Source: a phage. Taken from it: DNA of 44,330 nt. The stretch lies in the sequence record PZ527900.1. One strand, 5' to 3'. The notes under the pieces are model-generated. The model did no database searches and had not been told where the DNA came from. It saw only the letters and a list, made by a program, of their open reading frames with translations. Of this stretch, positions 3,544 through 43,772 are shown piece after piece. Position numbers and translations under genes: made by a program. How positions within the stretch are numbered: the first letter of the stretch is position 1; each line of letters starts with the position of its first letter.

Positions 3544-3792
3544 ATGTCTAAACACAGCCTTAAGATGTTTGATGGTCATGAAGATCTGCAAGCACAAATC
3601 ACTAACCAAGCCTTCCTGTTTGCACAGCTAACTATGGCTGAAGCAAAGAAGAATAGCCTGACGCGTGAGCAGGTTATCAAAGAGGCAACTTGGGAGCCAC
3701 ACCAAGGTAAATACATGGGCCAGAAATTAACTGTAACACGCAGTCGTGGTGCTACTCGTCGTATCAAAAACCACAGAAGTGGTGCTCGCTAG
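3544..3792 (+). CDS. hypothetical protein (82 aa)
   Basis: ORF starting 2 nt after the previous stop (translational coupling). Confidence 0.5.
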   Translation: MSKHSLKMFDGHEDLQAQITNQAFLFAQLTMAEAKKNSLTREQVIKEATWEPHQGKYMGQKLTVTRSRGATRRIKNHRSGAR

Positions 3793-3857
3793 TCGATAAG
3801 TCAAGGGTTGTCCAACGTGTTGGACAGCCTCTTTATCATATTGATCGGAGGTATTAA

Positions 3858-4010: not shown

Positions 4011-4215
4011 GCTAAGTAAGGTTTGCTCTTGCGGTAAAGGCTATCGTAGTCGTATTGATGGTAAGTGCGGACATTGCAGGTCTAAGAAAGAGGCTGCTTT
4101 GTTTGATAAGTACCACAATGAATTAGCATATAACTATCCTCATCTAACACCTAATTCTTTATTAGGGCTTGGTTATAGGGCTAAATACTTTGGGGCCATC
4201 TATGAAATCAATTGA
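3997..4215 (+). CDS. hypothetical small Cys-rich protein (72 aa)
   Basis: GGAG 7 nt upstream of ATG; CSCGKGYRSRIDGKCGHC looks like a zinc ribbon; overlaps neighbours by about 14 nt on each side. Confidence 0.4.
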   Translation: MKTIKLSKVCSCGKGYRSRIDGKCGHCRSKKEAALFDKYHNELAYNYPHLTPNSLLGLGYRAKYFGAIYEIN

Positions 4216-6748
4216 TTGGAAGAAGGAAGCAGAAGGCCGTATCCTTGTAATGGATGCGGAAGCTAAAGGTCTGCTTGACGCTATCCGCTATGGTCATCGT
4301 GAAGATGTACACATCATTTGCTGCATGGATTTGCTTACTACCGAGGAATTCTTATTCTTCGACCCTTATGAGATGCGTGACCCTGAAGCAAGGGAACGCC
4401 TGAAGGAGTGGGAAGGCCATCAAGATGGTGACTTAGTTGATGGTGTTAACTTCCTGAAGCACTGTGAAGCTATCGTGTCGCAAAACTTCCTAGGGTATGA
4501 CGGTCTTCTCTTTGAGAAAGCATTCCCTACTATCTGGAAGGGCTTTAACTATACCGAGAGGCGAGGCAAGGGCAGACTCCGCGCTGACCTGTGTCCTGTG
4601 CGAGTCATGGACACGCTGGTCATGAGCCGCCTGTTAAACCCAGACAGACGCCTTCCTCCTCAAGCATACGCCAAAGGTATGGGTAACGTCGCCCCTCACT
4701 CAATTGAAGCGCACGGCATCCGTATAGGCCGTTATAAGCCGGAGAATGAGGATTGGTCTAAGCTAACCGACCACATGGTTCACCGTGTACGTGAAGACGT
4801 GGCGATTGGTCGTGACCTTTTTCTCTGGCTATTTAACGGAGAATGGACGGAGCACAAACGCCGTGGCGTGAACAAACGTACTGGCCTAGGCATTGAGACT
4901 GCCTTCCACATGGAGTCCATTGTAGCGCTGGAGATGAGCCGTCAGGCCGAGCGCGGATTCCGTCTGGACATCGACAAAGCGTTAGCGCGATGCGAAGAAC
5001 TGGACGCTAAGATTGATGAGACAGTCGCAGCGTTCCGCCCACACATGCCTATGCGTATCAAGTCTAAACCTTTTAAACCGGAAGAAAAGAATGAAGTATG
5101 CCAACGCGCAAATGAGTATGGAGCTAGCAACAATATACCTACTGTCCTTGACCCCTCTCACTTTCTCCACGCAGAGAGACGAGGAGATCGCAAGACAGTA
5201 TGGAGTGTCACTACTAAGTCTGGTGATTGGTCGGCTAGTGTCAAGAAAGACTTTCCTCACCTTAGAGGAAACCGTAATGACACGCCAAGTATCAAGTGGG
5301 TCGGCGCTTACTCTCCCGTCACGTTTGAAGAGATTCCCTTGGGAAACCGTGACACCGTTAAGCAAGTGCTCTATGACTATGGCTGGAAAGGTGTGGAGTT
5401 CAACGATACAGAGCAAGCCTATCTTGATGAAAATGGTGTCCTACCTAAGCCTTGGAGTGGTAAGATAAATGAAAAGTCCCTTACTCTATGGCAAGAAAGA
5501 GCCGCACGTGAAGGTAAAACAGTCCCTGATTGGTGCTTGGGTATCGCTGCATGGTACATACTCGTATCCCGTCGTGGTCAGATACTCAACCGTGGTGACG
5601 TTGAAGCCTTCAACGAGAAAGGAACGTGGCCCTCTCAGGCTGGTGTACGAAAGTGTCGCGGCCTTGTACCTGTAGCATTTAACAAGGAGTTAGGAATCAA
5701 TGCGCAGCAATACTACGAGAGGTATGGGTGTTGGCCTACGTCTGACAAGGATGACGGAGAGTGGCGTGTGCCAGCTATTGCTATTAGCATTGGCACTTCT
5801 ACGTTCCGTATGCGTCATCGTAACGTGGTTAATATTCCTGCCCGTGGCTTGTATCCTTTACGTGATTTATTCATAGCAGGGAAAGGAAAGTTAATCCTTG
5901 GTTGTGATGGTGCAGGTCTTGAACTGCGTGTACTGTCTCACTTCATGAATGACCCTGAGTACCAAGATATTGTACTGCATGGTGATATCCATACTCATAA
6001 CCAGATGAAGGCCGGTCTTCCTAAGCGTGACATGGCGAAGACATTTATATATGCATTCCTCTATGGTTCTGGTATAGCTAACCTTGCAGCAGTATGTGGT
6101 GTTACTGAGGAAGAAATGAAGGAGGTTGTGGCAAGATTTGAGATTGAACTACCATCTCTTGCACGTCTTCGTGAAAATGTTATTGCACAAGGTAACAAGT
6201 TTGGCTACCTGCAAGCACCTGATGGACATTGGGGTCGCATCCGCATGTCTGGTGGTGAACTTAAAGAGCACACTATGCTTAACGTATTGCTACAGATGAC
6301 GGGTTCTTTGTGTATGAAATATGCATTGGTCAAGGCGTTTGCAGTGATGCGCAAGGAAGGTGTGGCTCTAGATAGCATGGGGAACCCTTGTGGTGTAGCT
6401 AACGTGCACGATGAGATTCAGATGGAAGTACCCGAAGATGAAGTCTTGTATCTTAACTACGACCTACCTTTCACCTTAGAGGGTTTTGAAACAGAGAAGG
6501 CTGCTGTGAAAGCAGTGTTCGATGCAGAGGAGAAACGCGTGCATGTGGACTCTGAGGGGCGCATGTGGTCTGCTGCTAACTTGGTTGAAGTGGATGCTGA
6601 TGCTGGTGTACTCCATTGCCAGCGTCGTTATCACCGTGCAGGGCATATCATTGCAGACGCCATGACTTGGGCTGGTCAGTATCTTAAGATGCGTTGCCCG
6701 ATGGCAGGCGAGTACAAGATTGGTGCAAGTTGGAAGGAGACACACTGA
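4202..6748 (+). CDS. DNA polymerase, family A (T7 gp5-like)
   Basis: Exo motif VMDAEAKGL; Pol I motif A LILGCDGAGLELRVLSHF; motif B RDMAKTFIYAFLYGSG; motif C VHDEIQMEV. Start set at the first in-frame ATG (MKSIDW...); the ORF-track start at 4169 is TTG. Confidence 0.9.
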   Translation: MKSIDWKKEAEGRILVMDAEAKGLLDAIRYGHREDVHIICCMDLLTTEEFLFFDPYEMRDPEARERLKEWEGHQDGDLVDGVNFLKHCEAIVSQNFLGYDGLLFEKAFPTIWKGFNYTERRGKGRLRADLCPVRVMDTLVMSRLLNPDRRLPPQAYAKGMGNVAPHSIEAHGIRIGRYKPENEDWSKLTDHMVHRVREDVAIGRDLFLWLFNGEWTEHKRRGVNKRTGLGIETAFHMESIVALEMSRQAERGFRLDIDKALARCEELDAKIDETVAAFRPHMPMRIKSKPFKPEEKNEVCQRANEYGASNNIPTVLDPSHFLHAERRGDRKTVWSVTTKSGDWSASVKKDFPHLRGNRNDTPSIKWVGAYSPVTFEEIPLGNRDTVKQVLYDYGWKGVEFNDTEQAYLDENGVLPKPWSGKINEKSLTLWQERAAREGKTVPDWCLGIAAWYILVSRRGQILNRGDVEAFNEKGTWPSQAGVRKCRGLVPVAFNKELGINAQQYYERYGCWPTSDKDDGEWRVPAIAISIGTSTFRMRHRNVVNIPARGLYPLRDLFIAGKGKLILGCDGAGLELRVLSHFMNDPEYQDIVLHGDIHTHNQMKAGLPKRDMAKTFIYAFLYGSGIANLAAVCGVTEEEMKEVVARFEIELPSLARLRENVIAQGNKFGYLQAPDGHWGRIRMSGGELKEHTMLNVLLQMTGSLCMKYALVKAFAVMRKEGVALDSMGNPCGVANVHDEIQMEVPEDEVLYLNYDLPFTLEGFETEKAAVKAVFDAEEKRVHVDSEGRMWSAANLVEVDADAGVLHCQRRYHRAGHIIADAMTWAGQYLKMRCPMAGEYKIGASWKETH

Positions 6749-6903: not shown

Positions 6904-7281
6904 ATGTCTATGGTAACTACTCTGGTTTTCGTAGCTCAATACTTTCGTGGTCTGGCTAATAAATTCAAGGCCAAGGCTATCAAAGCTATTGAGTCCCGCA
7001 TCGAGGCAGTACAGGAGGAGCAGGTTGAAGTTGAGGAACATCGCAGCTCTCAAATGATTGACTGCCACAATCGCTACTATGCCTCTCGTGATGACCTCAA
7101 TGCACGTCAAGTCAAAGAGGTTGAAGAGATGTTAGCACGTCACCAGCAAGAGCGTGACAACCTGAAAGCGGATTTCGAAGAGAACAAGGCATCCATTGCG
7201 CTTGTACATCAAGCTGCATCTGACAGCCTGAAGAAAGAGATTGTTATGCTGGAAATGGAGTTAGACAATCTGACCAAGTAA
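6904..7281 (+). CDS. hypothetical coiled-coil protein (125 aa)
   Basis: AGGAG 8 nt upstream; Glu/Lys/Gln-rich heptad-like sequence; lies between P1 and P2. Confidence 0.6.
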   Translation: MSMVTTLVFVAQYFRGLANKFKAKAIKAIESRIEAVQEEQVEVEEHRSSQMIDCHNRYYASRDDLNARQVKEVEEMLARHQQERDNLKADFEENKASIALVHQAASDSLKKEIVMLEMELDNLTK

Positions 7282-7488: not shown

Positions 7489-8298
7489 ATGGCACGTGGT
7501 GATTTTGATTTTGGTGCTCAGGTTACTAAAGCTGAAGGTAAAGTATTTAAGAACCCTGAAGTTGGTGATCATGAAGCAGTAATCTCTGGTATCATTCATG
7601 TTGGTTCCTTCCAAGATATTTTTAAGAAAGGTAATACCACTGAAGTTAAGAAGCCAGCAAACTTTGTTCTTGTTAAGATTGTCTTGATGGGCGATGATGA
7701 CAAGAATGAAGATGATTCTCGCATGGAACAATGGATGCCTGTACCGCTGAAGTCTGGTGACAAGGCAACACTGACTAAGTTCCTGAATGCAGTTGACCCT
7801 AAAGAATTGCTGGGTGGCTTCGATGACTTCATTGGCGAATGTCTGACTGCAACTATGGTTGGCTCTGGAGACAAGAATGACGATGGCTCATTCAAGTATG
7901 TTAACTGGAAAGGTTTTGGTGGTATGCCAGACAAGCTGAAGAAACTTGTTATTGCTCAGGTAGAAGAAGAAGGTTTGGCTATGACAGGTCACATTACCTT
8001 CGACAAGCTGACCAAAGAAATCATTGATGACATTCCTGCTAATCTGGTACGTCAATACCTCTTGAATGAGACACCTCGTGGTAAGAACCTGTCTGTTGCT
8101 GGCTCTCACGTAGAAGCAATCATTAAAGCTGCTCGTGAAGAAGACCCAGAATGGAAGAAGGCTAAGAAGAAAGACGAAGAAGAAGATGCTACTCCGGCTA
8201 ATCGTAAATCTCTGGACACTGGTGAGTCTGTTCCACAGGAAGTACCAGAAGCGGACAATGCGCCTGCACCGGAAATGGATGAGGACGCGGAATATTAA
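7489..8298 (+). CDS. hypothetical protein with acidic C-terminal tail (269 aa); possible ssDNA-binding-type replication protein
   Basis: AGGAGA 8 nt upstream; Lys/Asp-rich; ends PEMDEDAEY (acidic tail with terminal aromatic). Function is a guess from the tail and genomic position. Confidence 0.6.
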   Translation: MARGDFDFGAQVTKAEGKVFKNPEVGDHEAVISGIIHVGSFQDIFKKGNTTEVKKPANFVLVKIVLMGDDDKNEDDSRMEQWMPVPLKSGDKATLTKFLNAVDPKELLGGFDDFIGECLTATMVGSGDKNDDGSFKYVNWKGFGGMPDKLKKLVIAQVEEEGLAMTGHITFDKLTKEIIDDIPANLVRQYLLNETPRGKNLSVAGSHVEAIIKAAREEDPEWKKAKKKDEEEDATPANRKSLDTGESVPQEVPEADNAPAPEMDEDAEY

Positions 8299-8307
8299 GG
8301 AGGACGG

Positions 8308-8526
8308 ATGAAAGTACAAATCGTAACCCTGCACTGCAAGCGTGGCATTACTACCCTCGGCGGCACAACTTTTCACTCCTTCTCTGAAGGGGAGACATAC
8401 GCCGACCTGCACTACATCTGGCGCGATGGACAGCACGTGGTGAACTACAGCGACCCAGCTACTGGGAAACGCCACGGCGTGTCGCTTCCGGCGCATGACA
8501 TTGCGCAGGTGAACACAGTTTTATAA
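8308..8526 (+). CDS. hypothetical protein (72 aa)
   Basis: Strong RBS TAAGGAGGA; followed immediately by a palindrome and promoter P3. Confidence 0.55.
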   Translation: MKVQIVTLHCKRGITTLGGTTFHSFSEGETYADLHYIWRDGQHVVNYSDPATGKRHGVSLPAHDIAQVNTVL

Positions 8527-8527
8527 A

Positions 8528-8543
8528 GTCTCACGTGTGAGAC
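8528..8543. repeat. 16-bp palindrome GTCTCACGTGTGAGAC (copy 2 of 6)
   Basis: Perfect inverted repeat starting 2 nt after the stop at 8526 and 15 nt upstream of P3. Confidence 0.8.
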
Positions 8544-8556
8544 AAATCGGTGTCCG

Positions 8557-8582
8557 GTATTTACTGGACACTATAGAAGAGA
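8557..8582 (+). promoter_or_regulatory. phage RNAP promoter P3
   Basis: TATTTACTGGACACTATAGAAGAG. Confidence 0.8.
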
Positions 8583-8630
8583 AGAATTTTAATCGGCGAT
8601 AATGCCATAACCAACAAAAGGAGAATTAAT

Positions 8631-8999
8631 ATGTTCGCTATTGAAACTATCGTAAACCGTGTTGTTAAAGGTGCTGCTCTGGTATCCGTTGAGTCTTTCA
8701 TTATCGTCGATGAAGCTGGCTCTCTGGTCGCTGGCACTAAAGCCTATGACACCCGTGAAGAAGCTCAGGCTAAGATTGACAGCATGGGTAACTTCGCTGC
8801 TGGTCTGGAGTTCGCTCGTGCTTGCTTCCCTGAGCAGGCTGACAAAGCTCAAATTGGTAAGGCTAACATCGTAGCTGAATATCTGGACTGGATTGCTGCT
8901 GGTAAACCAGTGAAAGAAGTTAAAGCTGCTGAAGAAGCTGAAGTAGTAGAAGACGTAGCTGCACCGGAAGTACCGGTAAGCGAAGAGGAGGAGTTTTGA
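8631..8999 (+). CDS. hypothetical protein (122 aa), probably highly expressed; acidic C-terminus ending EEEEF
   Basis: AAAGGAG RBS; own promoter (P3) and hairpin terminator (9058); codon choice dominated by GCT, CTG, GAA, GTT, GGT. Confidence 0.65.
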   Translation: MFAIETIVNRVVKGAALVSVESFIIVDEAGSLVAGTKAYDTREEAQAKIDSMGNFAAGLEFARACFPEQADKAQIGKANIVAEYLDWIAAGKPVKEVKAAEEAEVVEDVAAPEVPVSEEEEF

Positions 9000-9057
9000 T
9001 AATAGTAGGTGTTGCCTCTGTTAGTCCTAGTTGACTATCACGCTCACCCATCTAATG

Positions 9058-9090
9058 CCCTGTCTGCCTTAGTGTAGGCAGGGTCTTTTG
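9058..9090 (+). terminator. hairpin plus U-tract terminator
   Basis: CCCTGTCT...AGGCAGGG 8-bp stem followed by TCTTTTG; near-identical in design to the terminator after the capsid gene. Confidence 0.55.
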
Positions 9091-9115
9091 CGTAATAGTT
9101 ATTGGAGAATGAATT

Positions 9116-9388
9116 ATGCCGACTATTGAATCTCGAATTACAATGGACATTAGCTACAATGCAATCACCAGACAATACATTGGAGTGGCCTATGATTACA
9201 AAACTGGTGAGAAGCTAGTGGAGGTGAGACAATGGGATGACTATTGGTTAAGACAGAATCTCCACGATGCGGTGTCCTCCTTCTTGAAGGAGTGGCCTAC
9301 ATGCGACCAAACTTCAACTTCGGAGCTACAGTATCGGAAGACAATAATCTCATCCTGTGGCCAACTGAAGGTAATCGAATCGCTTTAA
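9116..9388 (+). CDS. hypothetical protein (90 aa)
   Basis: GGAG 8 nt upstream; overlaps the start of the exonuclease gene. Confidence 0.4.
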   Translation: MPTIESRITMDISYNAITRQYIGVAYDYKTGEKLVEVRQWDDYWLRQNLHDAVSSFLKEWPTCDQTSTSELQYRKTIISSCGQLKVIESL

Positions 9389-10329
9389 TAGACGCTGATA
9401 TGCTACCCTACATCGTAGGTTATACTATCAGTGACATGACTTATGTACGAGCTACCACTCGTGTTAAGTCAGGACAAGTCCCATCAATCAAAGATACACC
9501 TGAGTGTAAGCAAGCGTGTGACCGTGTGAACTCCTTGCTTAATTCTTGGGTGTATGCAGCAGAGTGTGATGCAGCCAAGTTATTCATGACGAAATCAGAA
9601 GCTAACTTCCGTGTCCGCCTAGCATTCACCAAGCCTTACAAGGGTCAGCGTAAGACCGAGAAGCCTCCATTTTTCTATGAATTGCGAGAGCATCTCTTAG
9701 CGGTTCATGGTGCAATCTTGGCAGATGGTGAAGAAGCAGATGACCTCATGAGCATTGCACAATGGGATAGCCACCGCCGCTTCCAGCAAGATACAGGTAA
9801 CGAGTTTCCTATCGGTAGTCCAGAGCATAAAGCATTCTCTGATACTTGCATCGTTTCCTTAGATAAGGACTTGATGATTGTTCCCGGTTGGCATCTTCAG
9901 CCGGGTCAAGAGAAGAAATGGGTAGAGCCTATGGGTTGGCTTGAGTTACGCCGCAAGGCTAATGGTCAAGTCAAAGACCTAAAAGGTGCAGGCATCATGT
10001 TTCATTACGCACAGATGGTGATTGGTGATGACATTGATAATTATGCTGGCATACCCAGTCGTGGTGCTAAATATGCCTATGACCTTCTCAAAGATTGTAA
10101 GACAGAGAAAGAGTTGTACATGGCAGTGCTTGGTGCTTACAAGGCTAAGTTCGGACATGGACAAGTTAAGATTAAGAATTACCGAGGTGGTTATCGTATC
10201 GGCAAAGCATTTGACCTGATGCTTGAATGTGGTCGCTTGGCTCACATGGCTAGGTTCAAAGGGGATATATGGCGAGCCGATAAGAACCCAATCTTGTGGG
10301 GAGATGATGCGAAATGGTTAGCAAATTAA
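9301..10329 (+). CDS. 5'-3' exonuclease, FEN-like (T7 gp6-like)
   Basis: AAGGAG 8 nt upstream of ATG 9301; N-terminal IALIDADMLPYIVGY resembles the T7 gp6 N-terminus; acidic cluster GEEADDLMSIA; sits upstream of endonuclease VII. Confidence 0.8.
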   Translation: MRPNFNFGATVSEDNNLILWPTEGNRIALIDADMLPYIVGYTISDMTYVRATTRVKSGQVPSIKDTPECKQACDRVNSLLNSWVYAAECDAAKLFMTKSEANFRVRLAFTKPYKGQRKTEKPPFFYELREHLLAVHGAILADGEEADDLMSIAQWDSHRRFQQDTGNEFPIGSPEHKAFSDTCIVSLDKDLMIVPGWHLQPGQEKKWVEPMGWLELRRKANGQVKDLKGAGIMFHYAQMVIGDDIDNYAGIPSRGAKYAYDLLKDCKTEKELYMAVLGAYKAKFGHGQVKIKNYRGGYRIGKAFDLMLECGRLAHMARFKGDIWRADKNPILWGDDAKWLAN

Positions 10330-11791: not shown

Positions 11792-12130
11792 ATGTTACAG
11801 CATCATTATGACAATACCTGTATGGCCTGCTTAGGAGAAGGTGAAGGGTACCTGCATACTTGCAAAGGCCCGGTTAAGTCCAACATGTTGGACAACAATA
11901 TGGTTACTAAGCCGAAGCACTATGAGTTCTTCGAAGGTGTAGAGGCAATCACTATCATTGCCCGTAGCATGACCGAGAAGCAATTCGCTGGGTATTGCAT
12001 GGGTAACGCTTTGAAGTATCGCCTGCGTGCAGGTAAGAAATTCAACACTGAAGAAGACCTGAAGAAAGCAGACTACTACAAAGAGTTATTCCAGAAGCAT
12101 CGTCACGAATGTATTGATGAGGATATTTGA
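11792..12130 (+). CDS. DUF3310-like phage protein (112 aa)
   Basis: GGAGGAG 5 nt upstream of ATG; PKHYEF...GNALKYRLRAGKK...DLKKADYY pattern typical of the DUF3310 family (recalled). Confidence 0.55.
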   Translation: MLQHHYDNTCMACLGEGEGYLHTCKGPVKSNMLDNNMVTKPKHYEFFEGVEAITIIARSMTEKQFAGYCMGNALKYRLRAGKKFNTEEDLKKADYYKELFQKHRHECIDEDI

Positions 12131-12131
12131 T

Positions 12132-13079
12132 ATGAATATCTTTGAGTTCCTAGGGCTTCCAGAAGACCACCGCAGCCACCCATTCATGTTGGTGAAACAT
12201 CGTGGTGAAGTTCCTGAGAAGAAATTAAACTTTCCATGTTATGCACAGGTGAAACGAGATGGGATATTTAGTGCTGTTGTGGTCCGTAATGATGGTGCTG
12301 TTGCCATCTTTGGTCGTACTGGTAAAAAGCTCGCAAATGTTGAAGACTTGGAAAAGCTATTTAGTATATTTCCTGTCGGGTTGTATCTTGGTGAGTTGCA
12401 ATCTATGGCTGTTGGTGTATATCTTGAAGCTCTATCGGGAGTAGTAAACCCTAATCGTACAGAGCCACTTGATTTCATAGGGCAGCAGATTAAAGACAAC
12501 CTGTATATCGACTTCTTCGATATGTTAACCATTAAGGCATTCCATGATGGATTCACTGATGTTTCTTATCTCAAACGTTACGATGCTTTACATCGTCGCA
12601 TCGGCGCTCATCTTAGCGGGAACAACGCTATCCTTCCTATCACCCCTTGCCATAATGAGCGAGATGTTGAAGCGTTTGCGCAAGAGCAAATAGATGCAGG
12701 CCGAGAGGGTGCTGTATTTAAACTTGATGTGGAGTATGAAAGTGGGCACAAGGGCTATCGTCAAACGAAGATCGTGCGTATGGTATCTTACGACCTCACC
12801 TGCATTGGGTGGGAGGAGGGAAAAGGTAAGTATAAAGGTAAGGTAGCTAACCTCATTTTCAAATGGAAAGGAGGCAAGACAATCAAAGCTATGTTAGGTA
12901 AAGGGTGGACTCATGCAGATGCAGAACAGATGTTCCACGATATTAAACATGGCGGACGATTGAATGTCATTGGTAAAATCTTTGAAGTAAAAGGTCTTCA
13001 GGATTCAAGCAAGGGCAACATTCGTCTGCCCAAAGCGGGAGAATTAAGACATGACAAAGATGAACCAGATTTCTTTTGA
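12132..13079 (+). CDS. ATP-dependent DNA ligase
   Basis: Motif I VKRDG (adenylation Lys), motif IV REGAVFK; size and position as for T7-like ligases. Confidence 0.8.
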   Translation: MNIFEFLGLPEDHRSHPFMLVKHRGEVPEKKLNFPCYAQVKRDGIFSAVVVRNDGAVAIFGRTGKKLANVEDLEKLFSIFPVGLYLGELQSMAVGVYLEALSGVVNPNRTEPLDFIGQQIKDNLYIDFFDMLTIKAFHDGFTDVSYLKRYDALHRRIGAHLSGNNAILPITPCHNERDVEAFAQEQIDAGREGAVFKLDVEYESGHKGYRQTKIVRMVSYDLTCIGWEEGKGKYKGKVANLIFKWKGGKTIKAMLGKGWTHADAEQMFHDIKHGGRLNVIGKIFEVKGLQDSSKGNIRLPKAGELRHDKDEPDFF

Positions 13080-13266
13080 TTCCATGAAGGCAACTCGTGC
13101 CGTTGAGGTGGCAGAGGCTATCTTTGAAACTCTATCTTGTGGCATGGAAGTGCCATATAACTTACTGGCTGATGCAGAAGAACTTGGTCTTTCTGTAGAA
13201 GCTATCCAAGAGAAGGTTGACGAATTATATGGTACAGACGAAGAAGAAACCGACGATTTCATTTGA
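13051..13266 (+). CDS. hypothetical acidic protein (71 aa)
   Basis: ORF overlapping the ligase 3' end; acidic C-terminus DEEETDDFI. Confidence 0.4.
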   Translation: MTKMNQISFDSMKATRAVEVAEAIFETLSCGMEVPYNLLADAEELGLSVEAIQEKVDELYGTDEEETDDFI

Positions 13267-14077: not shown

Positions 14078-15628
14078 ATGAAACAGAGCACAGATTTGGA
14101 GTATGGAGGTAAGCAGTCTAAGATACCTAAGCTATGGGAGAAATTCTCCAATAAACGTAGCTCTTTCCTTGATAGGGCAAAGCATTACTCCAGACTAACC
14201 TTGCCCTATCTGATGAATGACAAAGGTGATAACGAGACTTCGCAGAATGGATGGCAAGGTGTAGGTGCTCAAGCAACTAACCATCTAGCCAACAAGCTGG
14301 CGCAAGTGCTATTCCCTGCACAGCGTTCCTTCTTCCGTGTAGACTTGACTGCACAAGGTGAGAAGGTTCTTAATCAGCGTGGTCTGAAGAAGACAGAGCT
14401 AGCTACTATCTTTGCTCAAGTGGAAACACGGGCAATGAAAGAGTTAGAGCAACGTCAATTCCGGCCTGCTGTGGTAGAGGCATTCAAGCATCTTATTGTT
14501 GCTGGTAGTTGTATGCTATACAAGCCAAGTAAAGGTGCAATCAGTGCTATCCCGATGCATCATTATGTAGTTAACCGTGATACTAATGGCGACCTGTTAG
14601 ACATTATCTTGCTACAAGAGAAAGCCTTACGCACCTTTGACCCAGCTACACGTGCTGTAGTAGAGGTTGGCTTGAAAGGTAAGAAGTGCAAGGAAGATGA
14701 CAGCATTAAGCTATACACACATGCTAAGTATCTTGGTGATGGATTTTGGGAACTCAAGCAATCTGCTGATGATATTCCTGTCGGTAAGGTAAGTAAAATC
14801 AAATCAGAAAAGCTACCTTTCATTCCACTGACTTGGAAGAGAAGCTATGGTGAGGATTGGGGTCGCCCTCTTGCAGAGGATTACTCCGGCGATTTATTCG
14901 TTATCCAATTCTTATCTGAAGCGGTTGCCCGTGGTGCTGCATTGATGGCAGACATCAAGTACCTGATTCGTCCGGGTGCGCAGACTGATGTTGATCACTT
15001 TGTTAACTCTGGCACTGGTGAGGTTGTCACTGGTGTAGAAGAGGACATCCATATTGTACAGTTAGGTAAGTACGCAGACCTCACACCTATTAGCGCGGTT
15101 CTAGAGGTGTATACTCGCCGTATCGGTGTTGTCTTCATGATGGAGACAATGACACGCCGTGATGCCGAACGTGTTACTGCTGTAGAAATCCAGCGAGATG
15201 CGTTAGAGATTGAGCAGAACATGGGTGGTGTATATTCCCTCTTTGCTACTACTATGCAATCGCCAGTAGCGATGTGGGGTCTGCTGGAGGCAGGAGAGTC
15301 CTTTACTAGTGAACTAGTGGACCCTGTGATTGTCACAGGTATTGAAGCATTGGGTCGCATGGCTGAACTGGATAAGTTGGCAAACTTTGCCCAGTACATG
15401 TCGTTGCCTCTGCAATGGCCTGAGCCTGTCATAGCTGCTGTGAAATGGCCTGACTATATGGATTGGGTGCGTGGTCAAATCTCTGCTGAACTGCCATTCC
15501 TTAAATCGGCTGGAGAGATGGCACAAGAGCAGGAAGCACAGATGCAAGCACAGCAAGCACAGATGCTTGAAGAAGGTGTGGCTAAGGCCGTACCGGGTGT
15601 AATTCAACAAGAACTTAAGGAGGCGTAA
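14078..15628 (+). CDS. head-tail connector (portal) protein, T7 gp8-like
   Basis: WQGVGAQATNHLANKLAQVLFP and RDAERVTAVEIQRDALEIEQNMGGVYSLF match conserved T7 gp8 segments as recalled; 516 aa. Confidence 0.9.
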   Translation: MKQSTDLEYGGKQSKIPKLWEKFSNKRSSFLDRAKHYSRLTLPYLMNDKGDNETSQNGWQGVGAQATNHLANKLAQVLFPAQRSFFRVDLTAQGEKVLNQRGLKKTELATIFAQVETRAMKELEQRQFRPAVVEAFKHLIVAGSCMLYKPSKGAISAIPMHHYVVNRDTNGDLLDIILLQEKALRTFDPATRAVVEVGLKGKKCKEDDSIKLYTHAKYLGDGFWELKQSADDIPVGKVSKIKSEKLPFIPLTWKRSYGEDWGRPLAEDYSGDLFVIQFLSEAVARGAALMADIKYLIRPGAQTDVDHFVNSGTGEVVTGVEEDIHIVQLGKYADLTPISAVLEVYTRRIGVVFMMETMTRRDAERVTAVEIQRDALEIEQNMGGVYSLFATTMQSPVAMWGLLEAGESFTSELVDPVIVTGIEALGRMAELDKLANFAQYMSLPLQWPEPVIAAVKWPDYMDWVRGQISAELPFLKSAGEMAQEQEAQMQAQQAQMLEEGVAKAVPGVIQQELKEA

Positions 15629-16552: not shown

Positions 16553-16578
16553 GTATTTACTGGACACTATAGAAGGGA
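16553..16578 (+). promoter_or_regulatory. phage RNAP promoter P5 (capsid promoter)
   Basis: TATTTACTGGACACTATAGAAGGGAGA. Confidence 0.8.
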
Positions 16579-16627: not shown

Positions 16628-17830
16628 ATGTCTACACCGAATACTCTGACTAACGTTGCTGTATCCGCATCTGGTGAGGTTGACAGCCTTCTTATTGAGA
16701 AGTTTAATGGTAAGGTCAATGAGCAGTACATGAAAGGTGAGAACATTCTTTCCTACTTTGATGTACAGACCGTAACTGGTACAAACACTGTTAGTAATAA
16801 ATATTTAGGCGAGACTGAGTTGCAGGTGTTAGCACCGGGTCAGTCTCCTAATGCTACCCCGACTCAGGCAGATAAAAACCAGCTGGTAATTGATACCACT
16901 GTTATTGCCCGTAACACTGTGGCACATATCCATGATGTGCAAGGTGACATTGATAGCCTGAAACCTAAGCTGGCTATGAACCAAGCCAAGCAACTTAAGC
17001 GTCTGGAAGATCAGATGGCAATTCAGCAGATGCTGTTGGGTGGTATTGCTAACACCAAAGCAAAGCGCAATAAGCCTCGTGTAAAAGGTCATGGCTTCTC
17101 TATCAACGTCAACATTACTGAGAGCGAAGCACTTTCTAACCCACAGTATGTCATGGCTGCTGTGGAGTATGCTCTGGAACAACAGCTTGAGCAGGAAGTG
17201 GATATCTCTGATGTAGCTATTCTGATGCCATGGAAATTCTTCAATGCGCTGCGTGATGCAGATCGCATTGTAGATAAGACTTACACTATTAGTCAGTCTG
17301 GTAGTACGGTACAAGGCTTTGTATTGTCTTCTTACAATTGCCCTGTTATCCCGTCTAACCGTTTCCCAACCTTTGCACAAGGTGCAGCCCACCACCTGTT
17401 ATCTAATGCAGATAACGGGTATCGCTATGACCCGACAGCAGAGATGAATGGTGCAGTTGCTGTACTGTTTACAGCGGATGCGTTGTTAGTCGGTCGTACC
17501 ATTGATGTAACTGGCGACATCTTCTATGAGAAGAAAGAGAAGACCTACTACATCGATACCTTCATGGCAGAGGGTGCAATCCCAGACCGCTGGGAAGCTG
17601 TGTCTGTAGTTACAACCAAACGCAACACCACCACTGGTGTGGCTGAGGCTGGTGGTACTGATCACGCCACCGTTCTGTCTCGTGCACAGCGCAAGGCTGT
17701 ATACGTCAAGAGTGCAAACCCTACAGCAGCTGCAGTCGCTGCGAGCCTGCCTGCTGAAGACTTGGTTGCTGCCGTTCGTGCTGTAATTGCTAAGGACATT
17801 AAACCTGCTGCGATGACAACTGCTGTGTAA
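16628..17830 (+). CDS. major capsid protein
   Basis: 400 aa; own promoter and terminator; AAGGAG RBS; position between scaffold and tail tube genes. Confidence 0.9.
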   Translation: MSTPNTLTNVAVSASGEVDSLLIEKFNGKVNEQYMKGENILSYFDVQTVTGTNTVSNKYLGETELQVLAPGQSPNATPTQADKNQLVIDTTVIARNTVAHIHDVQGDIDSLKPKLAMNQAKQLKRLEDQMAIQQMLLGGIANTKAKRNKPRVKGHGFSINVNITESEALSNPQYVMAAVEYALEQQLEQEVDISDVAILMPWKFFNALRDADRIVDKTYTISQSGSTVQGFVLSSYNCPVIPSNRFPTFAQGAAHHLLSNADNGYRYDPTAEMNGAVAVLFTADALLVGRTIDVTGDIFYEKKEKTYYIDTFMAEGAIPDRWEAVSVVTTKRNTTTGVAEAGGTDHATVLSRAQRKAVYVKSANPTAAAVAASLPAEDLVAAVRAVIAKDIKPAAMTTAV

Positions 17831-17838
17831 TACCTATG

Positions 17839-17872
17839 CCCTATCTACCTTGCGTAGGTAGGGTTCTTTTTG
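17839..17872 (+). terminator. hairpin plus U-tract terminator after the capsid gene
   Basis: CCCTATCT...AGGTAGGG stem followed by TTCTTTTTG. Confidence 0.6.
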
Positions 17873-21752: not shown

Positions 21753-24700
21753 TGGCAATTGAGCGGCAAGCAGTACAAGGTCTGCCACAAGTGCAGGCCA
21801 CTTCTCCTAATGTCATGACCTTTGCACCTCAGCGAGTTGGAGGTGTGGAGGCTGGCGTGGCTTCTACCTCCGGTAGTCGATTTATCGAAGATCTTATTCG
21901 AGCAGCGAGTAGTGTAGCTGATGTTACTACTGGTATCCTTAATCAGAAGATTGAGGAAGATAAGGTTGTTCAAATGGAACGGGCATATAATGGATTGATG
22001 CCTTCTGAGGATGCAACTCGTGGTGGCGCTCGTGCTAACATGCTTGTCAAAGCTCAACTGCTAGCTAATGATGAAGCAGCACGAATGAAAGACATGGCTA
22101 CTCGTTTCCAAGGAACGGATGACGAGTGGACACAACTCATGGTAGACTCTCGTAATGATATGCAGAACAAGCTGTTCCAGCAATACCCTGAGTTGCAAGG
22201 TGACAAAGATACAATGCGTATGGTCACTAACGTATTCCAAGAGCAGCAGCCTCAGATTTGGGCTACACGAACCCAGCATAAACTTGAACGGGAACAAGCT
22301 GATCGTGAAGATACCTTTGATGGAAGAGTGGCATCCACTTGGGATTCTAACCTTGACCCAGAAGCATCCGGTTATGCACTACAAGAGCGTATTCGTGAAG
22401 GTCTAACTCAAGGGTTATTGCCAGAGCAGATGCACAAGAAGTTAGTAGATAGGGCTATTTCTCTTGCACAAAGCGGTGATATCAGCATGGCTAAAGCCTT
22501 GAAGTATGTTAAGGATGACAAGGGTGTTTCTGTGTATGCGAAGAATCCGCAGCTTATCACAGCTATCACTAATGGTAATGCAGCTTGGGCTAGAAATAAT
22601 GTAGCTGATGTAACTCGTATGTCTTTCGAAGTTAAAGAGTCCTACCTTGCAGGTGATTTAACTGATGAAGAATTACTGGAGCGAGCACAACATATTAATA
22701 GTCTGACAGGTAACTCTGTGTTCTCTAACTCAGAACTTGAAGGGTTAATGCGCCAACGAGCGAAGCAGAATGCAGAGCTAGGTGCAATGCAAGATATGCG
22801 CCGTGAACTTTACTCGGACCGTATGATTGGTCTTCAAGGTAAATCGGATAAAGAAAAGAAAGCATATGTTGATCTTATCAAGCAAGACAGTCAACTCTAT
22901 GCAGACCAGCAGATTAAACAGCGGGGTCTTGACCCTTACAGCCAAGAAGCTGAAGCTATTCGTGGTGCTATAGAAGTTCAACGCCTCCAGTTTATGAACT
23001 CCAAAGGCTTAGTGGATGACACTTTTGAGTCTCGTATCAAAGCTATGGAATCCATGCTATCACCTGAGCACTTTGCTAAAGGTGAACCACAAGAGTTAAT
23101 GACTATTCGTCAATTGTGGGAGCAGTTACCAGAAGAGAGCCGAGGTGTCTTTGGTGACACAGTTAATGGCTATATGGATAACTACAACACTGCATTGCAG
23201 ATGGGTGAGACACCTTTGCAGGCTGCAAGGTTTGCCCGTGAAGCACAGCAGAAGTTCTCCCGTACTGAGAAAGAAACTAAGAAGTTCAACGCAGCTATTG
23301 GAGACGCCTTGGATACCGTGTCCGGTGCTGGGTGGTTTGATGGTAAGAAAGAGGTGTCTGACTTAGGTAAAGCTATTGCAGAAGAAGAATTACGAGCTAA
23401 GGCCAACATGTTGTGGTCCAGTGGTATGCGTAACATGGATTCCCTCAAGAAGGCTTTAATTACTTGGGGGAATAAACGCTACACTCAATCAGAGGATGCA
23501 AAGATCTCCGGTGGGTATTTTATCAAAGGTGATTATACCTCTGCATCTGATATGCTTATGTCCGTTGGGAAAGGGGTAAACCCTACTGATGTACCACTGG
23601 CTCTTGGTCGGTATGTAGAAGAACAGATGCCAGAGTTGAAGAAGGAACTTCAAGAGTGGGAGACTAAGAAGGACGTGTACATTGATTATAATGAACAGAA
23701 AGGCACTTTCGTAATTCGTGCTGGTGCCGCAGGTCGGCCTCTTTCTGGGGTAATCCCTATAACCTCCTTGGACACCACTTCCTTGTTGGATTCTGCTTAC
23801 AAGAAGAAAGTAGAAGAACGAGATAAAGGTGAATATGTACATCCATATCGTACAGATATTGGCACACAAGAGCCTATGCCTGCTAAACCAACTGCCAAAG
23901 ATATTGGTAAGTTTGGACTAGCTAACTTCCTCATGTCTTCTGCTTTCGCCTCTGGTGAGAGTCTCCCTTCTAACTTCGAAATTAACTATCGAGGAAATAT
24001 GCAACAATTCTATGATAAATTGGCTATGGATGAGAATAAAGACAAAGTTGGCTTTAATAGTGCAACTGGTACTTTTACTCCATACAAAGATGCTCACGGG
24101 GAATCTATCGGCTACGGTCATTTCTTGACGGAGGAAGAGAAGCGGAACGGGTACATTAAGATAGGAGATGAACTAGTCCCATATCGAGGGTCTATGTCTC
24201 AGCTTACAGAGAGCAAAGCTCGTGCTCTTATGGAGCAAGATGCTAAGAAGCATGTGCCCCCTACTCGTGACTGGAAGATTCCGTTTGACCAGATGCACCC
24301 TGCACAGCAACGTGGCTTGATGGATTTAACCTACAATTTAGGTAAGGGTGGAATCCAGAACTCACCGCGTGCTCTTGCTGCATTCAAAGCTGGTAAACTT
24401 ACGGAAGGTTTTATCGAAATGCTGGGCACTGCATCAAGTGAAGGTAAGCGTATTCCGGGCCTACTGAAGCGACGAGCCGAGGCTTACAACATGGCATCTG
24501 CTGGTGGTGTACCAAAGATTACCGAAGTAGAGACTCGTGAGGATGGTTCTATGTGGGTTAAGTTTGGTGGACCCATGCCAGCAGGCTCTGTCTCTGCGTG
24601 GACTCATAAACGTATTGGTGCGGATGGTTGGTATCAGGTTTATGAGGCTGCACCTACTAAGCTGGCTAAAGGTGCCAAAGTAGGTAAAGTTAAGTTGTAG
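21752..24700 (+). CDS. internal virion protein with lysozyme-like segment
   Basis: 982 aa; C-terminal PYKDAHGESIGYGHFLT resembles the T4 lysozyme YKDTEGYYTIGIGHLLT region. Confidence 0.8.
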   Translation: MAIERQAVQGLPQVQATSPNVMTFAPQRVGGVEAGVASTSGSRFIEDLIRAASSVADVTTGILNQKIEEDKVVQMERAYNGLMPSEDATRGGARANMLVKAQLLANDEAARMKDMATRFQGTDDEWTQLMVDSRNDMQNKLFQQYPELQGDKDTMRMVTNVFQEQQPQIWATRTQHKLEREQADREDTFDGRVASTWDSNLDPEASGYALQERIREGLTQGLLPEQMHKKLVDRAISLAQSGDISMAKALKYVKDDKGVSVYAKNPQLITAITNGNAAWARNNVADVTRMSFEVKESYLAGDLTDEELLERAQHINSLTGNSVFSNSELEGLMRQRAKQNAELGAMQDMRRELYSDRMIGLQGKSDKEKKAYVDLIKQDSQLYADQQIKQRGLDPYSQEAEAIRGAIEVQRLQFMNSKGLVDDTFESRIKAMESMLSPEHFAKGEPQELMTIRQLWEQLPEESRGVFGDTVNGYMDNYNTALQMGETPLQAARFAREAQQKFSRTEKETKKFNAAIGDALDTVSGAGWFDGKKEVSDLGKAIAEEELRAKANMLWSSGMRNMDSLKKALITWGNKRYTQSEDAKISGGYFIKGDYTSASDMLMSVGKGVNPTDVPLALGRYVEEQMPELKKELQEWETKKDVYIDYNEQKGTFVIRAGAAGRPLSGVIPITSLDTTSLLDSAYKKKVEERDKGEYVHPYRTDIGTQEPMPAKPTAKDIGKFGLANFLMSSAFASGESLPSNFEINYRGNMQQFYDKLAMDENKDKVGFNSATGTFTPYKDAHGESIGYGHFLTEEEKRNGYIKIGDELVPYRGSMSQLTESKARALMEQDAKKHVPPTRDWKIPFDQMHPAQQRGLMDLTYNLGKGGIQNSPRALAAFKAGKLTEGFIEMLGTASSEGKRIPGLLKRRAEAYNMASAGGVPKITEVETREDGSMWVKFGGPMPAGSVSAWTHKRIGADGWYQVYEAAPTKLAKGAKVGKVKL

Positions 24701-39318: not shown

Positions 39319-39654
39319 ATGGAACGTAACGCAAACGCTTATTACAATCTGCTGGCTGCAACTGTTGAAGCCTTCAACGAGCGTATTCAGTCCGATGGTA
39401 TCCGTGAAGGTGATGATTATTCTGATGCATTACATGAGGTTGTTGATAGCAACGTGCCGCACTACTATCATGAAATTTTCACGGTGATGGCAGCCGACGG
39501 GATTGATATTAGTTTTGAGGATGAAGGTTTGATTCCTGACACGAAGGATGTAACCAAGATTCTACAAGCTCGCATCTATGAGGCGCTTTATAATGATGTA
39601 CCGAATGACAGCAATGTAGTTTGGTATGAAGACGAGGAAGAAGAGGAAGAATAA
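39319..39654 (+). CDS. ocr: Ocr-like DNA-mimic anti-restriction protein (T7 gp0.3 homologue)
   Basis: [47 protein letters not shown] closely parallels T7 Ocr as recalled ([47 protein letters not shown]); strongly acidic, ends EDEEEEEE. Confidence 0.85.
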   Translation: [111 protein letters not shown]

Positions 39655-41144: not shown

Positions 41145-43772
41145 ATGCAAGATTTACATGCTATCCAGCTTCAATTAGAGGAAGAGATGTTTAACGGCGG
41201 TATTCGTCGCTTTGAAGCAGACCAACAGCGACAAATTGCATCAGGTAATGAGTCTGATACGGCTTGGAATCGCCGCCTATTGTCTGAATTAATCGCGCCG
41301 ATGGCTGAAGGTATTCAGGCATACAAGGAAGAGTATGAAGGTAAAAGAGGTCGTGCACCGCGTGCCCTTGCTTTCATTAACTGCGTAGAAAACGAAGTGG
41401 CAGCATATATCACGATGAAAATCGTAATGGATATGCTTAACACTGATGTTACCTTGCAGGCCATTGCCATGAATGTAGCGGACCGCATCGAAGACCAAGT
41501 GCGCTTCAGTAAGCTAGAAGGTCACGCCGCAAAATACTTTGAGAAAGTGAAGAAGTCGCTTAAGGCAAGTAAGACTAAGGCATATCGCCATGCGCACAAT
41601 GTAGCAGTAGTGGCTGAAAAGTCTGTAGCTGACCGTGACGCGGATTTCTCCCGCTGGGAGGCATGGCCCAAAGACACCTTGTTGCAAATAGGTACTACCT
41701 TGCTGGAAATCTTGGAGAATAGCGTATTCTTCAACGGGCAGCCTGTTTTCCTTCGTACCTTGCGCACTAACGGCGGCAAACATGGTATTTATTACTTACA
41801 AACTAGCGAACACGTAGGTGAATGGATAACGGCCTTCAAAGAGCACGTAGCGCAACTGAGTCCTGCCTATGCACCTTGCGTTATCCCTCCGCGTCCTTGG
41901 GTGTCTCCTTTTAATGGCGGTTTTCACACCGAGAAGGTAGCAAGCCGTATCCGTCTAGTTAAAGGCAACCGTGAGCACGTCCGTAAGCTGACCAAAAAGC
42001 AAATGCCAGCGGTATACAAGGCTGTTAACGCCTTACAGGCCACTAAATGGCAAGTCAATAAGGAAGTATTGCAGGTTGTTGAAGATGTTATTCGTCTCGA
42101 CCTTGGTTATGGTGTGCCTTCATTTAAGCCACTCATCGACCGCGAGAACAAGCCAGCTAATCCCGTGCCGTTAGAGTTCCAGCATCTAAGAGGCCGTGAA
42201 CTTAAAGAGATGCTAACGCCGGAACAATGGCAAGCCTTCATTAACTGGAAAGGCGAGTGCACCAAGCTGTATACCGCTGAGACTAAGCGCGGCAGCAAAT
42301 CGGCGGCAACCGTCCGCATGGTCGGGCAGGCCCGTAAATACAGCCAGTTTGACGCTATATACTTCGTGTATGCACTGGACAGCCGCAGCCGCGTCTACGC
42401 GCAATCTAGCACGCTCTCCCCGCAATCAAACGATTTAGGCAAGGCATTGCTCCGCTTTACCGAAGGGCAACCGCTAGATAGCGCTGAGGCGCTTAAATGG
42501 TTTTTGGTGAACGGGGCTAATAGCTGGGGTTGGGATAAGAAAACTTTTGACGTGCGCACCGCTAACGTGCTGGAGGGTGAGTTCCAAGATATGTGCCGCG
42601 ACATTGCAGCCGACCCGCTGACCTTCACTCAATGGGTGAATGCCGATTCGCCTTATGGCTTCCTTGCATGGTGCTTTGAATATGCGCGTTATCTGGATGC
42701 ACTGGATGAAGGTAAGCAAGACCAATTCATGACACACCTACCCGTCCATCAAGATGGTAGTTGCTCTGGTATCCAGCACTATAGCGCGATGTTACGCGAT
42801 GAAGTAGGTGCGAAAGCGGTAAACCTTAAGCCGTCCGACGAGCCGCAAGACATTTACGGTGCGGTTGCGCAGGTTGTTATACAGAAGAATTACGCCTACA
42901 TGAATGCAGACGATGCAGTAACTTTCACATCTGGCAGCGTCACCCTTACAGGTGCGGAATTGCGTAGCATGGCTAGCGCATGGGATATGATTGGAATCAC
43001 TCGCGGCTTAACCAAAAAGCCGGTTATGACCTTGCCATATGGTTCCACCCGCTTAACCTGCCGTGAGTCGGTTATTGATTACATCGTTGATTTGGAAGAA
43101 AAAGAGGCACAAAGGGCTATTGCAGAAGGGCGGACGGCGAATCCGGTGCACCCTTTTGATAATGACCGTAAAGACTATCTGACACCGGGCGCAGCTTATA
43201 ACTATATGACAGCCTTAATTTGGCCTTCAATCTCTGAAGTTGTTAAAGCCCCTATAGTGGCGATGAAAATGATTCGCCAGCTTGCACGATTTGCAGCTAA
43301 AAGAAATGAAGGGTTAGAATACCCCTTACCTACTGGTTTCATCTTGCAACAAAAGATCATGGCAACTGATATGCTACGCGTTTCTACTTGCTTGATGGGT
43401 GAAATCAAGATGAGTCTACAGATTGAAACGGATGTAGTGGATGAAACGGCAATGATGGGCGCTGCGGCCCCTAACTTTGTTCACGGGCATGATGCTAGTC
43501 ACCTTATCCTGACTGTATGTGACCTCGTGGATAAAGGTATTACATCCATTGCAGTTATTCATGACTCTTTTGGCACTCATGCAGGCCGCACCGCAGACCT
43601 GCGGGATAGCTTAAGGGCAGAAATGGTAAAAATGTATCAAGGTCGTAATGCCCTGCAAAGCCTGCTAGATGTACATGAAGAGCGTTGGCTAGTAGATACC
43701 GGCATCCAAGTGCCGGAGCAAGGGGAGTTTAACCTTGAAGAGATCTTAGTTTCTGACTATTGCTTCGCATAA
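41145..43772 (+). CDS. single-subunit DNA-directed RNA polymerase (SP6/T7 family)
   Basis: 875 aa; [42 protein letters not shown] and C-terminal ...DYCFA; N-terminus [32 protein letters not shown] matches SP6 RNAP as recalled. Confidence 0.95.

Follow-up and report, generated by a model that had tools for sequence, protein, structure and literature searches.

Gene 18 is very probably a dedicated single-gene transcription unit, and the sequence gives it the strongest predicted-expression signals in the phage genome. As for its product, the best single reading, which we offer tentatively, is that gp18 is a predicted abundant replication accessory protein that would dock through its C-terminal tail.

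The window, i.e., the whole stretch of 44,330 nucleotides that was analyzed (PZ527900.1), is ~94% identical to Escherichia phages K1-5 and K1E around gene 18, and we assign it by this similarity to a K1-5/K1E-like coliphage (Vectrevirus, Molineuxvirinae, SP6 group). It contains a near-complete genome, circularly permuted relative to K1-5, with the RNA polymerase gene at positions 41145 to 43772 and the DNA polymerase gene at positions 4169 to 6748. Gene 18 (8631 to 8999, plus strand) starts with an ATG, encodes 122 amino acids, and is the homolog of K1-5/K1E gene 18 and of SP6 gp20; its homologs are annotated as "hypothetical" in all records listed. The locus always lies in the replication module, with gp16 adjoining it or one small ORF away and the exonuclease downstream. 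Leaving aside the 2004 genome papers (Scholl et al.; Dobbins et al.), we found nothing in the searchable literature on the function of gene 18, nor any transcriptome or proteome data for it.

The gene is preceded by an SP6-type phage RNA polymerase promoter at positions 8559 to 8579 (plus strand), which matches the consensus ATTTACTGGACACTATAGAAG at 21 of 21 positions. Allowing up to three mismatches, nine sites for this consensus were found in the window, while none were expected from shuffled sequences, and this motif also lies ahead of the capsid gene. A preliminary description of this region had given gene 18 a promoter of its own, numbered P3. The dedicated promoter is indeed there, as an exact consensus site for an SP6-type phage RNA polymerase, but the numbering has to be revised, since it is the fourth and not the third in window order. 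No sigma-70-like site was detected upstream of or near gene 18. By analogy with SP6, we infer that transcription of the unit starts at G8576. The 55-nt 5' leader (8576 to 8630, plus strand) bears the Shine-Dalgarno sequence AAGGAG (8618 to 8623), located 7 nt before the ATG.

Fifteen nucleotides away from the promoter lies a perfect palindrome of 16 bp, GTCTCACGTGTGAGAC (8528 to 8543, plus strand), which begins 2 nt past the gp17 stop codon. Both the palindrome and the promoter are invariant in K1-5 and K1E, and in five genomes a copy of the palindrome is found directly 5' of the promoter for gp18. Palindromes of this type, 16 to 17 bp long and of the form GTC(T/C)(C/A)AC-N2-3-GT(G/T)(A/G)GAC, are present in 3 to 9 copies per genome in most SP6-like genomes. 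Only 0.08 copies would be expected by chance in the window, which harbors further copies at positions 3810, 11878, 24718, 43845, and 44032, plus copies with mismatches at positions 999, 2567, and 38525. Two mutually compensated variants occur there, TCTCAC/GTGAGA and TCCAAC/GTTGGA. One palindrome variant, GTCCAACGTGTTGGAC, is included in the stem of the terminator at positions 3805 to 3830, the fourth strong terminator, lying downstream of an 82-aa ORF (3544 to 3792) with a basic C terminus and a relatively high codon adaptation index (CAI) of 0.44. The palindrome may bind a protein or form a short hairpin in the RNA. An Rfam scan of positions 8200 to 9400 gave no significant match.

At its 3' end, the ORF is closed by four tandem in-frame stop codons, TGA TAA TAG TAG (8997 to 9008, plus strand), the first three of which are kept in K1-5 and K1E. 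An intrinsic terminator follows on the plus strand (hairpin at 9057 to 9084, element extending to 9090), made of an 11-bp stem with six G:C pairs, a 6-nt loop, and then CTTTTG. With a dG of −17.8 kcal/mol, this hairpin agrees with the earlier proposal that the gene has its own terminator, and a terminator after this unknown gene was already noted in SP6 and UAB_Phi78 (PMC4837284). It is a near-copy of the capsid hairpin at positions 17838 to 17864, two base pairs being changed on both sides, with G:C in place of A:T. We regard the gene 18 and capsid terminators as sequence paralogs with compensated pair changes. The SP6 t5 terminator stops SP6 RNA polymerase with ~85% efficiency in vitro, and the t5 template sequence published in the same study contains the same hairpin (PMC11347151), t5 being orthologous to the capsid hairpin. 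The ~85% figure refers to this ortholog of the capsid copy, and the gene 18 hairpin is a predicted terminator of the same type.

The combination of a promoter, a single ORF, and a strong terminator was found only twice in the window, at gene 18 and at the capsid gene (promoter at 16555, gene at 16628 to 17830, terminator at 17838 to 17864). The major capsid gene is thus the only one with a comparable unit, as had been claimed before. The other two strong terminators lie after the RNA polymerase gene and after a three-gene group, respectively. We detected no phage promoter (≤3 mismatches) between positions 8559 and 16555, and genes 19 to 31 must therefore be served by polymerases that read through the terminator of gene 18. 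The terminator thus probably doubles as an attenuator of transcription into genes 19 to 31. The ~7.4 kb past gene 18 harbor the exonuclease, endonuclease VII, phosphoesterase, ligase, portal, and scaffold genes.

We then compared the codon usage of gene 18 with that of the other genes. Its E. coli CAI of 0.663 ranks first among 39 genes, followed by gp16 with 0.49; the capsid gene has a value of 0.43. This index was computed with Sharp-Li weights, and we checked it with measures that need no outside reference set. Gene 18 again ranked first, with a capsid-referenced CAI of 0.770 (1 of 38) and the lowest effective number of codons (Nc of 32.9, 1 of 38). The codons, previously said to look optimal, therefore take the first rank by all three measures. 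The start region is the third least structured (dG of −4.1 compared to a median of −9.8). Regarding the ribosome binding site, which had been called strong, the canonical AAGGAG and its 7-nt spacing were confirmed, but the site is good rather than exceptional, as its SD:anti-SD energy ranks only 10th among 29 genes. When the window was compared with K1-5 and K1E, the promoter, leader, terminator, and palindrome were essentially invariant, while the ORF showed many synonymous differences.

To see how far the unit extends beyond the window, we looked at other phages. A tblastn search recovered a gene 18 homolog in 213 phage records, the hosts of which include Escherichia, Klebsiella, Vibrio, Salmonella, Proteus, Pseudomonas, Erwinia, Pectobacterium, Marinomonas, and Aeromonas. 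The unit itself was compared in a sample of eight genomes from Molineuxvirinae and Colwellvirinae. A strong hairpin with a U-tract (dG of −18 to −24), resembling the capsid terminator of the respective genome, follows the homolog in 8/8 genomes, and the genome's own phage-promoter motif is located directly 5' of it in seven of the eight. In seven genomes, the homolog ranks first to third among 35 to 42 genes for capsid-like codon usage. The arrangement of promoter, gene, and terminator and the biased codon usage thus recur in 7 to 8 related phages from eight host genera. With all sequence proxies in agreement and the pattern conserved, the description of gene 18 as a dedicated unit that looks highly expressed holds.

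Two related genomes showed additional features at this locus. In Vibrio phage phi-A318 (L005), the published annotation places the phage promoter phiA54 before the gp18 homolog, and we found after the homolog, at positions 15303 to 15350, a strong terminator (GCCCTGCCGCACTAGATGCGGTGGGGC and then TTATTTTTG) that is absent from the published annotation. Past that terminator, ~1 kb is unannotated, at the position expected for the exonuclease gene. Klebsiella phage RCIP0053 (L009) harbors, at positions ~23590 to 23700, a tRNA-like candidate with a GGTTCAAGTCC T-arm, just 5' of the promoter of the gp18 homolog.

We next turned to the protein. gp18 has a mass of 13.0 kDa and a pI of 4.3, and it is predicted to consist of three parts. 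Codons 1 to 95 (8631 to 8915, plus strand) encode a folded domain, modeled as a β-hairpin (residues 3 to 13 and 16 to 26) and helices spanning residues 42 to 51, 55 to 65, and 71 to 89, with a pLDDT of ~93 across residues 1 to 95 in the AF2 model. This domain is net acidic by residue count and almost invariant among close relatives, and K37, G58, A64, K77, N79, A82, W87, and G91 are near-invariant. Codons 96 to 115 (8916 to 8975, plus strand) correspond to a disordered linker of variable length, rich in Ala, Glu, Val, and Pro. The pLDDT drops to 54 to 60 in the C-terminal part (residues 101 to 122), and among 32 close homologs, indels are confined to the linker. The third part is the C-terminal tip VSEEEEF (codons 116 to 122; 8976 to 8996, plus strand), which is acidic and ends with an aromatic residue. 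S117 and E119 to F122 are invariant in 32/32 close homologs. Among more diverse members (30 to 50% identity), 18 of 22 still have an acidic run with an aromatic residue in the terminal position or beside it, and an aromatic residue is found within the last three positions in 19/19 loci; natural exceptions to the aromatic tip number three or four.

When 1.84 billion representative proteins were searched exhaustively, only 26 relatives of gp18 were recovered, all of similar size. A candidate homolog of 2,546 aa, P0145, was rejected as a low-complexity artifact. gp18 belongs to PHROG 4429, a family of unknown function, and neither its sequence nor its family profile matched Pfam, NCBIfam, PADLOC, or PDB sequences. 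This is in agreement with the preliminary description, which saw no recognizable motif other than an acidic tail; the tail turned out to be more specific than that, namely a conserved acidic tip with an aromatic end that is common to the helicase-primase and gp16. Structure prediction, which had been recommended there, yielded a confident AF2 fold with no characterized neighbor. Searches of the PDB and of the predicted viral structures in BFVD returned no meaningful structural neighbor, and the fold did not resemble known DNA-binding or replisome proteins. In particular, the model, a β-hairpin plus three helices, contains no OB-fold core and has no SSB-like neighbors.

The two other proteins with such a tail are the helicase-primase (388 to 2388; DnaB_C and Toprim domains), which ends with FDDEQEF, and gp16 (7489 to 8298), which ends with DEDAEY. 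The latter is an unannotated protein of 269 aa assigned to PHROG 862, a family of unknown function, and in all genomes that we looked at, it is encoded beside gp18 or close to it. The gp16 gene has its own promoter at position 7280 and the second-highest CAI in the genome. In its AF2 model, the core has a pLDDT of >90, and most of the PDB matches are SSBs with an OB fold (PrgE, RPA subunits, SsbA, and PriB), all of them weak individually (best E = 1.6e-3). From this model, gp16 is probably the phage's missing ssDNA-binding protein, of the OB-fold type. If so, the logic of the T7 tails plausibly applies here.

Helicase, gp16, and gp18 all end with acidic and aromatic residues in 19/19 distinct loci. 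A strict filter for acidic-plus-aromatic tails was passed by 43 of 582 non-overlapping ORFs, and 37 of these 43 were helicase, gp16, or gp18. Furthermore, the gp18 tip resembles the helicase tip of its own genome more than those of other genomes (p = 0.0035 for a set of 11 clade representatives and p = 0.0022 for 12), and the same within-genome test gave p = 0.002 to 0.008 for gp16 and helicase. In Aeromonas phage HJG, for instance, the three tips read GASY, EAAY, and DAAY, all ending with A-[A/S]-Y. The co-variation is lost when HJG, BD1, and Alpheus are left out (p = 0.23); it reflects few evolutionary events, in about three lineages. We found no co-loss of the tails: gp18 is without an aromatic tip in three lineages, and the adjacent gp16 keeps its tail. 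Going by these three natural tail-less variants, which come from contigs of ~1 kb that were each seen once and may contain sequencing errors, the gp18 tip is dispensable in some lineages.

Two other products encoded in the window have C termini of related composition. The ATP-dependent DNA ligase (12114 to 13079) ends with DFF in the window and with D-F in 8/10 genomes, and a 71-aa ORF at positions 13051 to 13266, in the replication/metabolism region, ends with DEEETDDFI and has no match in Pfam. The C termini of the helicase-primase and the ligase suggest a common docking code across four replication proteins, i.e., helicase, SSB, gp18, and possibly ligase.

The replication-module context, the adjacency of gp16 and gp18, the three-part design of gp18, and the common tail together lead to the reading of gp18 as a tail-docking accessory protein. 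Combining the expression unit and the role of the protein, we propose the following as the best explanation overall, at a likelihood somewhat short of even. The phage RNA polymerase would fire from the consensus promoter near G8576, and the short open leader and its AAGGAG would load ribosomes onto the most codon-optimized ORF of the genome. Translation would end at the tandem stops, and the capsid-type hairpin would release most polymerases at ~9090, giving a stable transcript of ~515 nt in large excess. A minority of read-through transcripts would supply genes 19 to 31, including those for the exonuclease, endonuclease, ligase, portal, and scaffold. The protein would then act as an abundant accessory factor at the replication fork, its tip docking on a receptor common to the helicase and gp16 tails. 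This receptor would most likely be the phage DNA polymerase, with the ssDNA cleft of gp16 as an alternative, and the folded domain would supply some stoichiometric activity. Several points count against docking: the natural variants that lack the tip, the dependence of the co-variation on about three lineages, a fold unlike known DNA-binding or replisome proteins, and the individually weak matches behind the SSB assignment of gp16. Nor is it evident why an adaptor should be expressed more strongly than all other phage proteins. It is rather unlikely, in our view, that gp18 represents a new, lineage-wide class of stoichiometric component of SP6-like replisomes, with a novel fold, top abundance, and docking to the polymerase by its tail. 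Within such a class, it might be a polymerase accessory or processivity factor or else a non-OB DNA-coating protein; in T7, the processivity factor is host thioredoxin.

The main rival to a docking accessory protein, unlikely though it seems, is an inhibitor for host takeover. gp18 would stoichiometrically neutralize an abundant host protein, e.g., a nucleoid-associated one, as a functional analog of T7 gp5.5. Gene 18 occupies the map interval of T7 gene 5.5, from DNA polymerase to exonuclease, its extreme predicted expression would suit the titration of an abundant target, and gp18 is small and acidic. However, homology to T7 gp5.5, gp5.3, gp5.7, gp5.9, and gp2 is absent (hhalign probability of <2%), and the gp18 tip resembles those of the phage's own helicase and gp16 and tends to track the helicase tip within a genome. 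The features of the family are, moreover, kept across phages of eight host genera, which also argues against a host target.

Less probable again is an abundant nucleic-acid-coating protein with a new fold, which would bind either ssDNA without an OB fold or dsDNA in a histone-like manner, by analogy with φ29 p5 or p6. The acidic tail would control DNA binding by the protein itself and the hand-off to the polymerase. This proposal shares ground with the best explanation, to which it adds a definite activity for the folded domain. It fits the size of gp18, its predicted abundance, and its place in the replication module; K37, K77, and W87 are among the nearly invariant residues, and the arrangement of domain, linker, and acidic tip is that of SSBs. 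The folded domain is nevertheless net acidic, it has neither structural similarity to DNA-binding folds nor homology to φ29 p5 or p6, and gp16 is already SSB-like.

It is improbable that gp18 serves as a decoy, i.e., an abundant SSB-like, acidic, Phe-ended peptide that competes with host SSB, whose C terminus is DDDIPF, for SSB-interacting enzymes, or that buffers or jams sensors of phage replisome proteins. Such a competitor would require very high expression, and the gp18 tip is conserved and carried on a flexible linker. Yet the tip lacks the I-P-F signature, in HJG it turns into AAY together with the tip of the phage helicase, and a near-invariant folded domain would be superfluous for a simple decoy. 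Very improbable is a regulator of the phage RNA polymerase that replaces T7 gp3.5, an amidase-type lysozyme that inhibits T7 RNA polymerase. We noticed no gp3.5 homolog in the replication module, and an accumulating product could act as a timer that shifts the balance of transcription and replication, but the likeness of the gp18 tail points to replisome proteins. Equally improbable is an ordinary class II gene whose codon bias is noise of a short ORF and whose hairpin is mainly an mRNA stabilizer or attenuator: the ORF does have only 122 codons and an unexceptional SD strength, but the top-three codon-bias ranks in seven independent genomes, the recurrence of promoter and terminator in 7 to 8 genomes, and the in vitro efficiency of the paralogous terminator argue against it.

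SP6, K1-5, and K1E are classic model phages relevant for therapy, and the RNA polymerase of SP6 is routinely used in the laboratory. What is, by its predicted signals, apparently their most strongly expressed gene has no assigned function in any of its 213 phage genomes. If gp18 docks by its tail, the SP6-group replisome would be the textbook T7 model plus one abundant subunit, and the acidic, aromatic-ended tip would be the docking code of helicase, SSB, gp18, and possibly ligase. The cassette is also predicted to be a natural module for high expression by SP6-type polymerases, being both compact and conserved, and efforts to engineer or minimize SP6-group phages have an obvious target in gene 18. 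The architecture of the cassette is itself known, being of the T7 gene 10/Tφ type. With regard to the searchable literature, the 2004 genome papers aside, four points appear to be new: the codon bias that tops the genome and is conserved in two subfamilies, the paralogous relationship between the terminators of gene 18 and the capsid gene, the three-part design of gp18, and the membership of its tip in the tail class of helicase and putative SSB.

Comparison with known phage systems places these findings as follows. We rejected gp18 as a DNA mimic of the Ocr type, as it has no match to the Pfam ocr family, is transcribed from a phage promoter, and lies in the replication module. The genuine Ocr homolog is encoded elsewhere, in the early region (39319 to 39654; 111 aa; Pfam PF08684, E = 1.7e-30), and ends with EDEEEEEE. 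φ29 p6 (histone-like, dsDNA binding) and p5 (SSB) are replication proteins of 12 to 13 kDa, similar in size to gp18; both have been reported as very abundant, and the C-terminal region of p6 is acidic. The φ29 lineage is unrelated, and hhalign gave probabilities of only 0.8% for p5 and 0.3% for p6.

In T7, we found no homology of gp18 to gp2, gp2.5, gp4, gp4.3, gp4.5, gp4.7, gp5.3, gp5.5, gp5.7, gp5.9, or gp6.5. T7 gp5.5 (DUF2675) is an abundant class II protein that binds H-NS and tRNA. It is small and, like gp18, encoded between DNA polymerase and exonuclease, but it ends with VREVF, without an acidic aromatic-ended tail, and the hhalign probability is 0.1%. The tail of gp18, SEEEEF, is similar in kind to those of T7 gp2.5 (SSB; EADEDGDF) and gp4 (helicase-primase; SNDTDF), as given in the T7 genome record. 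These two T7 tails bind basic patches of the T7 DNA polymerase (PMC12339929). The body of gp18, in contrast, contains no OB fold or helicase domain, gp18 has no T7 homolog, and some natural variants are without the tip.

The expression unit finds its closest counterpart in the T7 cassette φ10-gene 10-Tφ. Like gene 18, it consists of a consensus promoter for the phage RNA polymerase, a single codon-biased ORF, and a class I hairpin with partial read-through. We know of no second cassette of this kind in the T7 class II region. The difference lies in the cargo, which in the gene 18 unit is a small, non-structural protein of the replication module instead of the capsid protein.
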